Source: a bacterium
GTDB lineage: Bacteria; Patescibacteriota; Microgenomatia; Daviesbacterales; UBA10151
NCBI GenBank assembly: GCA_021786315.1
Contig: JAJYNN010000002.1
Coordinates: 398,997 to 462,996 of the forward strand
Direction: 5' to 3'
Length of the DNA stretch: 64,000 bases
Positions within the stretch are counted from its first letter, which is position 1; each line of letters starts with the position of its first letter. Positions 40,548 to 59,351 of the stretch are shown here, in pieces. The notes beneath the pieces were generated by a model, which was not told the DNA's origin, searched no databases, and was given only the letters and a program-made list of their open reading frames with translations. Both the position numbers and the translations under genes were made by a program.

Positions 40548-41918
40548 ATGATAAAAGGAACTATTGCACAAGTTATCGGTCCGGTTGTTGATATCCAGTT
40601 TAAGGCGGGAGAAACCCCTGAGCTTTACAATGCTATCACCATTAAAAACGGTGATGCTCAATTGGTTTTGGAAGTTCAACAACACTTAGGTGACGGGGTT
40701 GTCCGGACTGTGGCTATGTCTCCTACCGATGGTTTGAAGAGAGGTATGGAAGCGACCGATACCGGCAAGCCGATTTCTGTTCCGGTTGGTGAAGAAGTTT
40801 TAGGAAGATTATTCAATGTTTTGGGTGAAAACATTGATAACAAGGAAGATTTAAAAGTTAAACAAACTTACCCAATCCATCGACCTGCACCTTCTTTTGC
40901 CGATCAACAGACCACCTCGGAAGTTTTTGAAACCGGAATTAAAGTCATTGACCTTATTGCCCCCTTTGTTAAAGGCGGAAAAGTCGGACTTTTCGGAGGA
41001 GCCGGGGTCGGTAAAACAGTTTTAATTCAGGAACTGATTAGAAACATTGCTGCCGAGCACGGCGGGTACTCTGTCTTTACCGGAGTTGGTGAAAGAACCC
41101 GGGAAGGAAATGATTTATATCATGAGATGGTTGATTCCGGGGTTATTAATAAAACTGCCATGGTTTTTGGACAGATGAATGAACCACCTGGGGCTCGTTT
41201 ACGAGTTGCTTTAACCGGTTTAACCATGGCGGAATATTTCCGTGATGAACAAGGTAAAGATGTGCTTTTGTTTATCGATAACATCTTTCGGTTTTCCCAA
41301 GCCGGTTCTGAAGTTTCCGCTTTACTTGGCCGGATTCCTTCAGCTGTAGGTTATCAACCAACCTTGGCTACCGAGATGGGAGCTTTGCAGGAAAGAATTA
41401 CCTCCACCAAGAAGGGTTCGGTCACTTCTGTCCAGGCAGTCTATGTTCCGGCTGATGATTACACTGATCCCGCACCTGCGACCACTTTTGCCCACCTTGA
41501 TTCCACTATTGCTTTGGAACGAGGTTTGGCAGAACAAGGTCTCTACCCTGCTGTTGATCCATTAGGTTCCAACTCCCGGGCTTTGGCTCCGGATGTGGTT
41601 GGTAAGGAACATTATGAAGTGGCAGTTGCTGTGCAAAAAGTTCTCCAAAGATACAAAGAGCTTCAAGATATTATTGCCATCTTAGGTATGGAAGAGTTAT
41701 CTGATGAGGATAAGAAAACTGTGACGAGAGCCCGAAAGATCCAAAGGTTCCTAACCCAACCTTTCTTTGTTGGTGAAACCTTCACTGGGAGACCAGGAAA
41801 ATATGTGTCCATCAAAGACACCATCAAAGGATTCAAAGAAATCCTTGAAGGTAAACATGACGATAAACCCGAACAAGCCTTCTATATGAAAGGCACAATT
41901 GAAGAAGTTACTGCTTAG
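40548..41918 (+). CDS. atpD: F-type ATP synthase beta subunit
   Basis: 456 aa. [16 protein letters not shown]-loop and the DELSEED-region equivalent (LSDEDKK). Confidence 0.95.
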
Positions 41919-42724
41919 GAATTGAGCTCATTGGCAAATTCGTAAAAGAATGCTAAAGGCTCGGCAATTTCCCCCTTTGATATTAATTGAGCAAATCTCC
42001 CGGCATTCTCTTTGAGTCCCTGATGGTAAGGCAACATCTTTCTCCTGATTTCTTTTGGAACTTGTTCTATCAGACAATAATCAGTTAATTCGGGTCGGTC
42101 ATACCTAACATCTAAGGCGTGTTCAATCCCAATAATAGCCATTGAGGGTTTTTCCGGAGTTCCTTGATGCTGGGAAATAGTTGTAAACATATGGTCAGCC
42201 CGGGGTTTAACGCAACCCAAGCTGAGTACAGACAGGAGCAGCACTTGGTTGTTCCTTGTAAGATCCAGGATTTTATTCCGGTAGGGATTATTGTTTAAAA
42301 CAATATCCTCTACCTCGGCAAATGTTAGGTCGCATCCAATAATGTGCAGGGAAATTTTATTGGCTAAATCAAGCAGAGGTTGGAATTTTACAACAGGAGA
42401 GTCGGGGTAGTTGCCTTTAAGGTACTCCAACCAGGCGTCGACCTCTCCTTCGCTAATTGGGGCTGTCCTGCTTGCCCCAAATTCTCCGGTTTTCCCTTGG
42501 TATTCAAAACAGGTGAACCCTTCGTGAAGCAATTTCCCGGGTTTGATACTTTCCATGAGTTTAATTTGTTGGCTTTGTTGCTCGTTGTGTGAAGGTAAGG
42601 GGATCTGGTGTTGTTCTCCGATAATAACCGTCCGGGTTTCGTTGCCGCGAAACAGAATCGAGAACCTGTTTTCTTCGGCATATTGAATAAGATTGGATCT
42701 TATTTGTTCGCTCTCTTTGGACAT
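41915..42724 (-). CDS. ChaN/Tiki/TraB-superfamily-like protein (GEQH motif); start uncertain
   Basis: [11 protein letters not shown] resembles the GE(Q)H motif of ChaN-like haem-binding / erythromycin-esterase-like proteins. The track ORF starts at a TTG (42751); an ATG is at 42724. Confidence 0.35.
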
Positions 42725-42815
42725 AGGCAGATAATAACATATTCCGACCAATAAAAATATTATAGGTTAAAACCTAAGCCTTCTACATGAAAGGCACCAT
42801 CAACGAAGTTACTAC

Positions 42816-43358
42816 TTAATCAAAAAGTTTAACCAGAAAAGGAAATTCTTTGTAGGGCTGGTTATAAGTATCTGAACCCATATGTCCCTCTCCTTTTTGA
42901 ATAATTAAAGTACCTTTACCTAAATTATCTAATATGTTTCTACCCTGTTTATCGTCACATCCCCAGGGGTCATTGTCAGAATTAATAAGGATAATATCCT
43001 CTACATTTTCGCCAATTTTTTTCCAGTCATACTTATCTTGAAGTATTGATGTAGAGCCATCCGGTAAGGGAGTGGAAAACCCAGCTACTAAAATTGCTTG
43101 CTTAATCTTAACGTTAAGTTGTTCTAAAACACTTAAGATTAAAGGGCAACCTGCTGAGTGCCCAACGAGCAAGGTCTCTTCATTGTAAGCTTCTTTAAAT
43201 GCTGCCGGCAACCAGCTGGCCAAATCTGGATTGTCAGTATTGGGCAATTGAGGTATGGAAATAATATATCCTTTTTTCTCGAGTTCTAATTTTATGTAAG
43301 GAAACCAAAAAGATTCTGGTGTTTCTCCTGAACCATGCAATATTACTGCATTTTTCAT
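42816..43358 (-). CDS. Alpha/beta serine hydrolase of the RBBP9/YdeN family
   Basis: 180 aa. VGHSAG nucleophile elbow, NSDNDPW (Asp), and GEGHMG (His). Size and motif order as in YdeN-type esterases. Confidence 0.6.
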   Translation of the reverse strand: MKNAVILHGSGETPESFWFPYIKLELEKKGYIISIPQLPNTDNPDLASWLPAAFKEAYNEETLLVGHSAGCPLILSVLEQLNVKIKQAILVAGFSTPLPDGSTSILQDKYDWKKIGENVEDIILINSDNDPWGCDDKQGRNILDNLGKGTLIIQKGEGHMGSDTYNQPYKEFPFLVKLFD

Positions 43359-43484
43359 CTTGGGGATAATATATCATAAAAGGAAAAATAACTTAAAGTA
43401 GATAAACTCTTTGTTATAATCCAGATATGAATTTGTGTTTTGTGTATATTACTAATCCTAATTTAGAAGAGGCTAAGAAGGTGG

Positions 43485-57680: not shown

Positions 57681-57709
57681 AGTATATGCCTTTTTTAAAA
57701 GGGGGTCAA
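57681..57709 (-). promoter_or_regulatory. Candidate promoter for the Hyf/Ehr-like operon (TTGACC-17-TATACT on the minus strand)
   Basis: Reverse complement of ~57704-57709 reads TTGACC; that of ~57681-57686 reads TATACT. Spacer is 17 nt, ending ~9 nt before the GTG start. Confidence 0.3.
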
Positions 57710-57761
57710 TTGATATGTTTAAGTAGGTGTTTGATCATAAAACACATAGAATACACAGAAT

Positions 57762-58913
57762 TTAACGAGTTGGAGCCAGGGCGACAGCGTTTGAATTAAC
57801 CCGGACGAATTTATCCCAGTAATCATTTGCTGCTGCTATAGTCTTATTGGCCTCATTCTTATCGTAATTCCAGGACATAATAGTGTTAAAGATTGTTTGA
57901 TCATTTCCTCTCATATAACCTTTCATTGCCAGAAAGACCCAGGCACCGATTACTGCTGAGGTGGGGTCAAAGGGATTAAACTTTACTCCTACCCGGTCCA
58001 TTAATTGGTAAACTTTAAGGGCGTTATCAGGCATAAATTGGGGACCGATTGCTCCTCCGCTAACATCACCTTCGCCTGAATACGATCCGGGAATTTTTTC
58101 ATAATTAAAATTGATGCCGGTATCTGTACTTACCAACTCACAAAGCTTTTTTAAGGAGTCAACTCCATCGGGAAATATTTTTGGATTTATGTGGCGGATG
58201 GCGGGTTGTTCTCCGGTATTGATAAAACCAAACTTAAGTTCATTTCCTCCAAAAGAGCTGCCCGTTTCCAGCGCCATCAGCATGGCCATTCCGCCCGGAT
58301 TCATCATTACCGTTTCTGGATCAATTTTCTGGTTGGCTAGTGAGGGTCTAAGAGTAGGCAACAAAGTTTTAATTACTTCCAGGGCTTGAGGATAAGCCTC
58401 TTTACAGATCGCCAATACCTCGGGCTGAAGCTTCTGGCTGATTGCCCATTCCATTTCCTGAGGAGAGAGATTTTTAGGTAGATCTCCTTTTGTTCGGAGT
58501 TCAGTTCGAGCATCAAGTAAACAAGCGCGTAGATCTTTACTGGTTACAGCCCAAAAGCCTTGGTTGATTTGCTCCTTTGTTTGTGCTAAAGCAACATAAG
58601 CCGCTTCTTTTCTGACTCTTTTGGGTGTATAGGGATCAAGAGAGAGGATCTCGTTAAGAAATGCTTTAAGGTCTGTTTTTTCTACGGTTTTTGGAACTTC
58701 CTTGGTGGTAGCGTTTGTGGTTGGGGTTTCTTTGGTAGCCACAGGAGTTGTGGCTGGTGCAGGTGCTTCTGTAGCCGAGGAAGTAGACGTATTCAAAGCT
58801 CGACCGGCAATTGCACCAAGTATCCCTCCACCGGCAATATAGAGGCCAGCTTTAACTAATCTCCTTCTTGTTGCGTCATATTCATGCGGATTAGGATTGT
58901 CTTTGTTATCCAC
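57762..58913 (-). CDS. Lytic murein transglycosylase (MltB/SLT_2-like) with a twin-arginine signal peptide
   Basis: 383 aa. N-terminal ATRRRLVKAGLYIAGGGILGAIAG (Tat motif T-R-R-x-L-V-K plus an h-region). SGGAIGPQFMP matches the GxMGxxQFMP motif of MltB-type transglycosylases. Confidence 0.5.
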   Translation of the reverse strand: MDNKDNPNPHEYDATRRRLVKAGLYIAGGGILGAIAGRALNTSTSSATEAPAPATTPVATKETPTTNATTKEVPKTVEKTDLKAFLNEILSLDPYTPKRVRKEAAYVALAQTKEQINQGFWAVTSKDLRACLLDARTELRTKGDLPKNLSPQEMEWAISQKLQPEVLAICKEAYPQALEVIKTLLPTLRPSLANQKIDPETVMMNPGGMAMLMALETGSSFGGNELKFGFINTGEQPAIRHINPKIFPDGVDSLKKLCELVSTDTGINFNYEKIPGSYSGEGDVSGGAIGPQFMPDNALKVYQLMDRVGVKFNPFDPTSAVIGAWVFLAMKGYMRGNDQTIFNTIMSWNYDKNEANKTIAAANDYWDKFVRVNSNAVALAPTR

Positions 58914-58940
58914 TTATTTCATGGTAGAATTTACTCTCGT

Positions 58941-59351
58941 ATGAGTCAACTACATCTAAAGATTGTCACTCCGGAAAAAGAAATCTATGATTCTGAGGTG
59001 GATATGGTAACCGTCACTACTCCTGATGGAGAAATTGGGGTACTCCCCCACCACGCCAATTTAATGGCCCAGGTTATCCCAGGCGAGCTGAAAGTAAAAA
59101 TTGGTGATAAGGAAACTCATATGGCTACCGGAAGCGGTTTGCTGCAGATGATAAACAATACCTTAATTATAGCTACTGATTTGGCAGAAAGAGCGGAAGA
59201 TATTGATGAGAAAGCTGTGGAAGAGGCAAAAGCTCGGGCCCAAGCTGCTTTAGAACAGACACTAACTGATGAGGAATATGCTACGGCTGCTGCAGCTTTG
59301 GAAAAGGCATTAGCCCAGCTTAAAGTTAAACGCCGCCACCGAGTTTCCTAG
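58941..59351 (+). CDS. atpC: F-type ATP synthase epsilon subunit, separated from atpD by ~17 kb
   Basis: MSQLHLKIVTPEKEIYDSEVDMVTVTTPDGEIGVLPHHANLMAQVIPGELKV is the canonical epsilon N-terminal beta-sandwich. Start moved to the internal ATG of track ORF 58884..59351. Confidence 0.8.
   Translation: MSQLHLKIVTPEKEIYDSEVDMVTVTTPDGEIGVLPHHANLMAQVIPGELKVKIGDKETHMATGSGLLQMINNTLIIATDLAERAEDIDEKAVEEAKARAQAALEQTLTDEEYATAAAALEKALAQLKVKRRHRVS

Follow-up and report, generated by a model that had tools for sequence, protein, structure and literature searches.

The window described here is a stretch of 64,000 nucleotides (nt) from contig JAJYNN010000002.1 (assembly GCA_021786315.1, positions 398,997 to 462,996 of the forward strand) of a bacterium of the Daviesbacterales, and its subject is an F1Fo ATP synthase locus in which atpC, the gene of the epsilon subunit, stands apart from the genes of the other seven subunits. 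The stop codon of atpD, which encodes the beta subunit, and the start codon of atpC are separated by 17,022 bp. It is very probable that this break between the beta and epsilon genes is shared by a whole lineage of Daviesbacteria-like organisms, that epsilon is expressed independently from an mRNA that is probably leaderless, and that the opened junction serves as a landing site for other genes, which in one subclade include the operon of an Ehr complex. The adjacency of the beta and epsilon genes is among the most stable gene pairs of bacteria, and epsilon is a brake on ATP hydrolysis.

Organization of the ATP synthase locus

In the canonical order atpIBEFHAGDC the genes are contiguous and co-directional, with atpC right after atpD. 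The window departs from this order by the gap in front of atpC and by an open reading frame (ORF) of 77 amino acids (aa), orf77, between atpG and atpD. As the original prediction had it, atpB, atpE, atpF, atpH, atpA, atpG and atpD are contiguous; their coordinates held, and Pfam identified all seven subunits (Table 1). No atpI was seen upstream of atpB, where the neighbor is a divergent 250-aa gene, and no epsilon gene lies directly 3' of atpD in the window.

Regarding the identity of the distant gene, its product is a full-length F1 epsilon subunit. The N-terminal beta-sandwich matched PF02823 (5e-22, residues 4-80), the C-terminal two-helix domain matched PF00401 (1.9e-9, residues 86-130), and the score against TIGR01216 was 108.9 bits, as compared with a curated equivalog cut-off of 67.25 bits. 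The check by hidden Markov model that had been proposed for this gene was thus passed, and its strand is that of the main operon, as first described. A second epsilon gene was also looked for; the gene at 58941-59351 is the single epsilon homologue across the 64-kb window. Assembly with gamma and the c-ring and inhibition of ATP hydrolysis are expected of the AtpC family and are predicted here. Eighteen ORFs lie between atpD and atpC, of which 11 are on the minus strand, in agreement with the block of about 17 kb of mostly minus-strand genes originally reported. The c subunit, read by eye, has no Na+-binding motif (E is followed by A-I, and L replaces Q), so H+ is the probable coupling ion; a c-ring coupled to Na+ was rejected on this by-eye reading.

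Occurrence of the split in related genomes

The epsilon protein was scanned against one genome per species, which returned 80 loci. The window proteins were mapped onto all loci (referred to below by L numbers where they have to be told apart), and gap statistics were taken from the loci holding both atpD and atpC. The best match was Candidatus Daviesbacteria GW2011_GWA1_41_61, with amino-acid identities of 81% (atpC), 82% (atpD) and 83% (atpA). The next-best epsilon matches belong to other metagenome-assembled genomes of Daviesbacteria and Microgenomates, several of which are evidently mislabelled 'Gammaproteobacteria'. The source of the window is accordingly a Daviesbacteria-like member of the Microgenomates (Patescibacteria, Candidate Phyla Radiation), a groundwater bacterium with a very small genome.

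Each of the 10 Daviesbacteria-like loci with both genes has atpD and atpC on one strand, 362-6462 nt apart, whereas the distance ranges from -1 to 520 nt (median 107) in the 61 loci from other groups (Curtissbacteria, Verrucomicrobia). The question raised with the original prediction, whether atpC adjoins atpD elsewhere, is thereby answered: the two are adjacent in the outgroup loci and apart in the Daviesbacteria-like ones, none of which has epsilon right after atpD. The 17 kb of the window is the largest gap found. The first gene 3' of atpD is convergent in nine of the 10 Daviesbacteria-like loci. What fills the gap varies by genome and includes carbonic-anhydrase-like proteins (Pro_CA_2 and CDCA-like), a ParE-type toxin pair, a retropepsin-like plus DUF5678 pair, an amylase, a signal peptidase, a glycosyltransferase and, in L001, a DEAD-box helicase with a TypA-like GTPase (by eye). 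The backbone order is kept in L001, L002, L005 and L008 (374-aa gene, atp operon, atpC, PBP1A). Because 10 of 10 relatives are split and the contents vary, the break is a trait of the lineage and not an event in the window genome; and because atpD and atpC are apart in every sampled member, the beta-epsilon junction was most likely broken in the common ancestor of the Daviesbacteria-like lineage.

Between atpD and atpC, several relatives carry genes of carbonic-anhydrase-like proteins, namely a 120-aa Pro_CA_2 protein (PF20393) or a CDCA-like protein of about 215 aa (L002, 5079-6171; L006, 3560-4696; L007, 114-770; L008, 9546-9905; L078, 3037-4182; L148, 3547-4185). The CDCA-like gene stands immediately upstream of atpC on the same strand in L006, L007 and L148. 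The window itself has no carbonic-anhydrase-like gene in the interval.

Promoter and start of atpC

A promoter-like site with an extended -10 element precedes atpC (Table 1). Ten nt separate the end of its -10 box from the ATG, and a Shine-Dalgarno sequence is lacking. Most of 13 relatives likewise lack a Shine-Dalgarno sequence and have a TATAAT-like box that ends 6-12 nt before the ATG of atpC, whereas the Curtissbacteria locus L013, with atpC close behind atpD, has AAGGAG in place of the promoter box. In L148, TAGAAT stands 9 nt upstream. In the window, a -10-type box at 4-13 nt from the start was found for 16 of 35 genes standing first in their unit, as against 4 of 35 operon-internal genes, 3 of 35 in a control with the test interval moved 20 nt upstream, and a random-position background of 4.5%. 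The same architecture occurs at atpB (TATTAT ending 11 nt before the ATG), at ehrS of the Ehr operon and at the ChaN-like gene next to atpD. The match at atpC gains weight from its conservation in relatives and from the enrichment at first genes, and atpC shows both sequence features of the leaderless type, a -10 box within about 4-13 nt of the start and no Shine-Dalgarno sequence. We infer that atpC is monocistronic and has its own promoter; with a -10 box only 6-12 nt from the ATG, its mRNA would be leaderless or nearly so.

More generally, internal genes of the window tend toward Shine-Dalgarno sequences, and the leaderless-type boxes on nearly half of the first genes help to delimit operons here. 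The gene upstream of atpC, o383, is divergent from it; the two starts are 27 nt apart and share a 27-bp control region. The predicted -10 boxes overlap (TAGAAT at 58925-58930 on the plus strand for atpC, TACCAT at 58926-58921 on the minus strand for o383), so the two promoters may compete for RNA polymerase.

Gene insertion at the atpD stop codon

The 3' end of atpD is present twice. A relic copy of the last 14 codons lies downstream of the functional copy as a direct repeat (Table 1); it still reads 13 residues of the atpD tail, followed by a stop. Between the two copies lie the ChaN-like gene and its promoter and nothing else (0.9 kb). Beyond the relic, the stop codon of the serine hydrolase gene overlaps the relic's last bases, mirroring the overlap of the ChaN-like stop with the functional atpD end. 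Locus L078 has a 42-nt repeat of the same kind (88% identity, E = 2e-8) around a retropepsin-like plus DUF5678 cassette, and in L003 an atpD-tail relic stands behind that same cassette. The left boundary of the scar is nearly identical in the window, L078 and L003 despite two different cassettes. Regarding the differences between functional and relic copies in the window and L078, 10 of 13 fall at third codon positions (P = 0.0016), so both copies evolved as coding gene ends; this coding-type divergence suggests that the DNA came in joined to the atpD end of a related organism, rather than that a duplicate decayed in place.

At least some of the genes between atpD and atpC thus arrived by insertion at precisely the stop codon of atpD, and with each insertion the final ~43 nt of the gene came to be present twice. 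Two mechanisms fit the scar equally well, namely site-specific integration into an att-like site and homology-facilitated illegitimate recombination between related strains, and the last ~43 nt of atpD may be a recombination target for integrase-less cassettes in Daviesbacteria. A search for direct repeats at the borders of the block had been suggested with the original prediction: a 43-nt repeat does occur at the left border, but it encloses 0.9 kb, and no repeat matching the scar was found near atpC. A phage or plasmid origin of the cassette is unsupported by viral contigs, none of which had the atpD-tail pattern or a relative of the ChaN-like protein; among 5.8 billion proteins, the ChaN-like protein matched only itself.

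The AFYMKG stretch of the atpD tail is an imperfect palindrome (GCCTTCTAyATGAAAGGC; 41875-41892 and 42778-42795). On the minus strand the relic palindrome is scored as a hairpin of terminator type, immediately behind the stop codon of the convergent serine hydrolase gene.

The Ehr operon and its position

The six-gene Ehr operon of the interval, ehrS-ehrB-ehrH-ehrE-ehrF-ehrCD, carries the domains expected of a membrane-bound complex of the Hyf/Ehr type (PF01058, PF00146, two PF00361 matches and the HyfE-like NF008556). Most of the cofactor ligands are lost. Compared with HycE (7Z0S_E), none of the four NiFe cysteines is kept (RVCGICGFAH is RISGDSSFSH and DPCYSC is NLSYTG), and compared with MbhJ and HycG, a single one of the four cysteine ligands for the proximal [4Fe-4S] cluster remains (GSTNACE, GNDA and PGDPP against GSCNGC, GAC and PGCPP). 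No ferredoxin-type (HycF/NuoI) subunit is encoded in the cluster. EhrF keeps the conserved motifs that bear the Glu of transmembrane helix (TM) 5, the Lys of TM7 and the Glu of TM12. The predicted complex is accordingly one that lacks the NiFe site and the proximal FeS cluster; it would be unable to act as a hydrogenase and is most likely a redox-independent cation/proton translocator.

The gene order S-B-H-E-F-CD was found in more than 20 contigs of the Candidate Phyla Radiation (CPR). A conserved accessory subunit downstream of ehrCD was considered and rejected, the ORFs at that place in the window, L148, L151 and L152 being mutually unrelated. Jaffe et al. (2020, BMC Biol 18:69, PMC7304191) described a CPR-specific Ehr clade of group-4 NiFe-hydrogenase homologues without the metal-binding cysteines, probably unable to interact with H2, and reported that these genes are patchily distributed, with evidence of lateral transfer; ATP synthase is not mentioned in that paper (0 occurrences). 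The predicted window complex resembles this description and is a candidate member of the clade. In a tree of the homologues collected here, it clusters with those labelled CPR, apart from loci with the other gene order.

The position of Ehr between atpD and atpC recurs in L148, L151, L152 and L153, which hold the closest EhrCD homologues (68-70% identical) in the same sandwich as the window. On the 191.8-kb contig of L148, atpBEFHAGD is followed by a 70-aa ORF, a 295-aa ORF, Ehr on the opposite strand, a CDCA-like gene and atpC, with a gap of 9.5 kb; over the part that their contigs cover, L151, L152 and L153 show an equivalent arrangement. The Ehr genes of the window, L148 and L151-L153 are monophyletic in both the EhrCD and the EhrB tree, which indicates that Ehr was inserted once and then inherited vertically, with turnover of the genes on either side. 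Two loci of another CPR lineage, with atpD about 70% identical, also place Ehr at the atp operon: in L096 atpD, an epsilon gene of 79 aa and ehrS are co-directional with spacers of 4 and 34 nt, and in L084 atpD, an 82-aa epsilon gene and a 194-aa ORF are convergent with ehrCD. Since their Ehr belongs to a different subclade, the two operons came together independently at least twice. Flanks of 4-10 kb were available for a further 12 or more CPR Ehr loci and contain no atp gene, and Ehr is missing from the 10 kb around each of the 10 other Daviesbacteria atp loci.

The epsilon proteins of L096 (4087-4326) and L084 (12393-12641), with their 79-82 aa, consist of the beta-sandwich and lack the inhibitory C-terminal helices. 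Elsewhere, Ehr follows COX2-COX1-UbiA genes on the same strand (L157, 960-3972) or is followed by an amine-oxidase-like flavoprotein and a P-type ATPase (L156, 3428-8873).

Interpretation

The sequence of events that we consider very probable would begin with the breaking of the beta-epsilon junction in the common ancestor, atpC staying nearby on the same strand. Variable genes, mostly on the opposite strand, would then have gathered between atpD and atpC, to an extent of 0.36-17 kb depending on the genome; some would have entered at the atpD stop codon, leaving a second atpD tail of about 43 nt. One Ehr insertion in a sub-branch would have been followed by vertical inheritance. With a promoter of its own, atpC would have become monocistronic, and the supply of epsilon would be set independently of the seven other subunits. 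Several points weigh against this account. The uniqueness of the epsilon gene is established within the 64-kb window. The scar flanks the first 0.9 kb, the remaining 16 kb shows no recognisable junction scars, and no integrase or recombinase Pfam domain occurs among the 18 interval ORFs. The atpC promoter is read from sequence signals, and 48 promoter-like sites were found in the window where 33 were expected, such hexamers being common in AT-rich DNA. The order of events is drawn from single-protein neighbor-joining trees, and the atpD tree places L001, a locus without Ehr, as sister to the window, so that either a loss or a tree error must be assumed.

The original prediction had offered an insertion into an ancestral atp operon as one explanation. 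The insertion as such is borne out by the outgroups that keep atpD and atpC adjacent (n = 61) and by the 43-nt duplicate of the atpD end, but the idea of one 17-kb insertion is not, as the break is shared by 10 of 10 relatives and the composition is native. A single recent island of 17 kb, integrated into an intact atp operon of this particular organism, would account for the direct repeat of the atpD 3' end at the left border, for the ORFans and accessory genes of the interval and, given the reported patchy distribution of Ehr in CPR with evidence of lateral transfer (PMC7304191), for the presence of that complex. Yet the repeat spans 0.9 kb with no counterpart near atpC, the interval has neither an integrase domain in its ORFs nor a tRNA gene, and its guanine-plus-cytosine (GC) content, tetranucleotide profile and codon usage are native. 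Moreover, every Daviesbacteria-like relative is split with different contents, and Ehr, o127 and o383 are common to relatives at the same relative positions. The island was rejected on the grounds of composition, missing integrase and tRNA, and repeats around 0.9 kb only, and we hold it to be very improbable; an old, stepwise accretion agrees with the native composition and the lack of further scars. It is more improbable still that the contig is chimeric between atpD and atpC, or that 58941-59351 is a spare paralogue with the working epsilon gene elsewhere. Two Logan assemblies of the same organism do break at about 47842, in a dispersed repeat, but both are 99-100% identical at the amino-acid level to the window proteins between 47.9 and 61.5 kb, four recorded contigs of 0.2-1 Mb carry the same protein, and the sandwich recurs in three independent L148 assemblies and in L151-L153; as to a paralogue, the gene passes the curated epsilon cut-off, and no relative shows epsilon directly behind atpD.

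The other explanation offered originally was a deliberate association of the ATP synthase with an ion-translocating complex. Its factual part, repeated co-location, holds (five sandwiches, L084 and L096) and is suggestive of such an association; against it stand the unlinked Ehr and atp loci, and an insertion hotspot would explain the position equally well. In its full form this explanation, which is compatible with the lineage-wide break, has Ehr, epsilon and F1Fo held together by selection as working partners: the ATPase would pump H+, Ehr would convert or use the gradient as a cation/H+ translocator, and epsilon would be supplied from the neighboring divergent control region. In favor of it, five genomes keep Ehr between atpD and atpC although EhrCD has diverged to 68-70% identity and the flanks have turned over, the juxtaposition arose at least twice, and elsewhere in CPR Ehr adjoins other genes of energy or ion metabolism, namely COX1/COX2 or a P-type ATPase. 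Most Patescibacteria have no respiratory chain, and how their membrane is energised and for what reason an F-type ATPase is retained are open questions (PMC10633639). On the other side, no atp gene accompanies Ehr within 4-10 kb in at least 12 CPR loci, Ehr is within 10 kb of none of the 10 other Daviesbacteria atp loci, and the window Ehr has its own promoter on the strand opposite to the atp genes. If the chance that a given lineage has the two within 10 kb of each other in a 1-Mb genome is taken as about 4%, and 2-3 independent hits are counted among about 15 lineages, a rough binomial calculation arrives at P of about 0.02-0.12. As an insertion hotspot downstream of atpD alone is an adequate alternative, we consider such a functional super-cluster rather unlikely. 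The specific proposal that, in CPR without a respiratory chain, Ehr is the partner of F1Fo, exchanging a hydrolysis-built proton gradient for another ion gradient or the reverse, with epsilon uncoupled and its level set beside Ehr, is unlikely in our view; its support is the repeated juxtaposition in the five Daviesbacteria sandwiches, L096 and L084. The lineage-wide break with independent atpC remains the reading preferred here.

Other genes of the locus

The coordinates of all features are given in Table 1. Pfam confirmed the YdeN-like hydrolase, the ABC exporter, the small DUF-type genes and the Hyf/Ehr-like complex of the original description, whereas the ChaN label remains below threshold (E = 0.0085; 16.5 bits against a cut-off of 27.7). 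A homologue of o127, 64-70% identical, occupies the same sub-interval in L152 and L153.

The comparison of GC and codon usage with the flanks, also proposed originally, showed the interval to be native: GC is 0.4361, as against 0.4367 in the rest of the window, and the correlation of relative synonymous codon usage with that of backbone genes is 0.68-0.78 for the larger interval blocks and 0.74 for the atp genes. It is lower in two single-gene blocks of less than 400 codons each, o204 (0.26) and o383 (0.38). Tetranucleotide distances are in range with one exception, the segment of Ehr membrane proteins at 52.5-57.5 kb. No tRNA gene was found in the interval, and the only Rfam match was a tRNA-Tyr.

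Table 1. Features of the ATP synthase locus and of the atpD-atpC interval, in window coordinates.
Feature	Position	Strand	Evidence or remark
Main ATP synthase transcription unit, atpB-E-F-H-A-G-orf77-atpD	35800..41918	+	Pfam for all seven subunits
atpB	35800-36537	+	Pfam
atpE	36680-36886	+	Pfam; Shine-Dalgarno present
atpF	36962-37453	+	Pfam
atpH (short delta, 129 aa)	37450-37839	+	Pfam
atpA	37836-39428	+	Pfam
atpG	39428-40306	+	Pfam
orf77 (77 aa, highly charged)	40313-40546	+	Putative coding; fills the 241-nt atpG-atpD spacer
atpD	40548-41918	+	Pfam
Last 14 codons of atpD, repeat copy 1 (att-like site or insertion scar)	41875..41917	+	Direct repeat, 43 nt
ChaN-like ORFan (278 aa), first inserted cassette	41915..42751	-	Convergent with atpD, stop codons overlap; TATAAT 7 nt before start
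Relic copy of atpD 3' end	42776..42818	+	86% identical to copy 1, blastn-short E = 3.8e-6
Mixed accessory genes	42816..50448	mixed	Pfam
YdeN-type serine hydrolase	in 42816..50448	-	PF06821, 1.2e-15
105-aa coiled-coil ORF	in 42816..50448	-	
297-aa and 296-aa ORFs	in 42816..50448	+	No assigned family
ABC exporter	46029-47807	+	Pfam
DUF5680/DinB_2/o127/ASCH	47991-49699	+	Pfam
o204 (204-aa membrane ORF)	in 42816..50448	-	
Ehr operon, ehrS (NuoB-like)-ehrB (HyfB-like)-ehrH (NuoH-like)-ehrE (HyfE-like)-ehrF (HyfF-like)-ehrCD (NuoC/NuoD fusion)	50512..57672	-	Pfam, NCBIfam
Ehr promoter-like site, TTGACC-17-TATACT	57681..57709	-	-10 ends 8 nt before ehrS GTG
o383 (383 aa, twin-arginine-like N-terminus)	57762..58913	-	Divergent from atpC
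atpC promoter-like site, TTGTTA-16 nt-TGgTAGAAT (extended -10)	58903-58930	+	9/12 consensus matches plus TG
atpC (full-length F1 epsilon, 136 aa)	58941-59351	+	PF02823, PF00401, TIGR01216

The protein o383, originally labelled a Tat-secreted lytic transglycosylase, gave no sequence match in Pfam, NCBIfam or the PDB. Its AlphaFold model is of good quality (predicted local distance difference test 83.7 overall, above 90 for residues 80-370), and a fold search with it found no PDB match with E below 0.5; the sole lysozyme-like fold came at rank 41, the glycoside hydrolase family 23 (GH23) chitinase 3W6E, with E = 6.9. The transglycosylase label therefore finds no support from HMM, PDB sequence or fold searches. 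The remaining signals are a TRRRLVK motif (by eye), a GGAIGxQFMP motif and a faint precomputed TAT_signal in one homologue. Homologues of o383 adjoin atpC in L001, L151 and L153; in L152 the homologue stands beside the Ehr operon, and the contig ends before atpC. The family has 27 members, and elsewhere the gene follows topA in an mreC-PBP2-dprA-topA cluster, a neighborhood that suggests a role in the cell envelope.

The delta subunit is short, as first noted, but this is not peculiar to the window genome. Residues 36-127 of its 129 aa align to residues 84-175 of a 178-aa delta; as it is the C-terminal domain only that aligns to known deltas, the N-terminal domain is truncated, and the protein scores below the cut-off of TIGR01145. 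Deltas of 131-137 aa occur in L002, L005, L008, L009, L011 and L148, so that the short delta is a clade trait.

The 77-aa ORF reported between atpG and atpD is present. It has no Pfam or NCBIfam match and no tblastn match across 160 related loci, and the spacer that it fills measures about 120 nt or less in most close relatives, as against 241 nt in the window. A GGAG stands 9 nt upstream of the putative ORF, its stop lies 1 nt before the atpD ATG, and atpD has no Shine-Dalgarno sequence of its own, a layout that hints at translational coupling. Small, unrelated genes stand between atpG and atpD in other Microgenomates as well, namely a NUDIX-like ORF in L010 (6776-7172; by eye) and a four-helix-bundle ORF of the 23S rRNA intervening-sequence type in L013 (715-1170) and L014 (655-1115; both by eye). 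The atp operon of Microgenomates tolerates insertions at more than one junction.

The alpha subunit, of 530 aa, ends in a Ser/Thr/Lys-rich tail of about 30 aa (39330-39428) that is absent from close relatives (about 497-498 aa in L001 and L148). In mycobacteria a C-terminal extension of alpha suppresses ATP hydrolysis, and the tail in the window may be comparable.

A short repeat is dispersed over the window, with all copies on the plus strand. It consists of GGGCTACC, a hairpin and then ACGATCCTGTAATTTCTC, and occurs at 1005-1037, 30465-30498, 35754-35782 (just upstream of atpB) and 47807-47837, with a weaker copy at about 14427. The hairpin stem varies by compensatory changes (TTCGGC/GCCGAA, TTTTGAC/TCAAAA, TTCCGACG/TCGGAA). 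No copy was found in 160 loci of relatives and no Rfam family matched. Both of the independent Logan assemblies mentioned above break in the repeat copy at about 47842.

Comparison with known systems

Split atp clusters, CPR Ehr complexes and insertion at gene 3' ends are each known already, and the window is a variant that combines them; literature searches yielded nothing relevant on a link between Ehr and ATP synthase or on a split of atpC in CPR. The lineage-wide break, together with a promoter of its own, suggests separate regulation of the inhibitor and coupling subunit of the ATPase in fermentative organisms with reduced genomes. The atpD-tail duplications offer a molecular handle on how accessory genes enter the very small genomes of CPR. 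An Ehr complex that is predicted to be redox-dead and transport-competent and that recurs at the atp locus is a testable candidate partner for the membrane energetics of these organisms. A functional link between Ehr and the ATPase, if true, would raise the significance of the locus; all the evidence presented here is genomic context.

Regarding ATP synthase operons, purple non-sulfur alphaproteobacteria have separate F0 and F1 operons, and cyanobacteria and chloroplasts have atp1 and atp2. Shared with the window is the distribution of the F1Fo genes over more than one transcription unit. Those split clusters, however, keep beta and epsilon adjacent and co-transcribed, whereas the window is broken exactly there, with an epsilon gene that is predicted to be monocistronic and a gap that is a variable insertion site.

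As in integrative elements that target the 3' ends of genes and bring a replacement for the end with them (att duplication), direct repeats of the atpD end flank the cassette, and frame and stop are kept in both copies. Unlike such elements, the interval has no integrase domain in its ORFs, and the cassettes measure just 0.7-0.9 kb.

With the Ehr clade of Jaffe et al. (2020) the window complex shares a large subunit without metal-binding cysteines, and its homologues, 55-70% identical, are on CPR contigs, some of them named Howlettbacteria, Wildermuthbacteria or Patescibacteria. Added here to that description are the loss of three of the four FeS ligands, the fixed S-B-H-E-F-CD order and the placement in or beside the atp locus. 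Among solved structures, the large subunit is best matched by HycE of the Escherichia coli formate hydrogenlyase (Hyf type; PDB 7Z0S, 8.3e-71) and the small subunit by MbhJ of the membrane-bound hydrogenase (MBH) of Pyrococcus furiosus (PDB 6CFW, 3.3e-27). The membrane repertoire is the same (HyfB-, HyfC-, HyfE- and HyfF-like), but the window complex is without the NiFe ligands, the proximal [4Fe-4S] ligands and the HycF/NuoI-type subunit and, as predicted from these losses, could neither make nor use H2. Mrp antiporters, finally, have in common with Ehr the antiporter-like subunits with the Glu of TM5, the Lys of TM7 and the Glu of TM12, and the lack of redox input; Ehr, in which transport is predicted, differs from them in retaining homologues of NuoB, NuoCD and NuoH, which are absent from Mrp.

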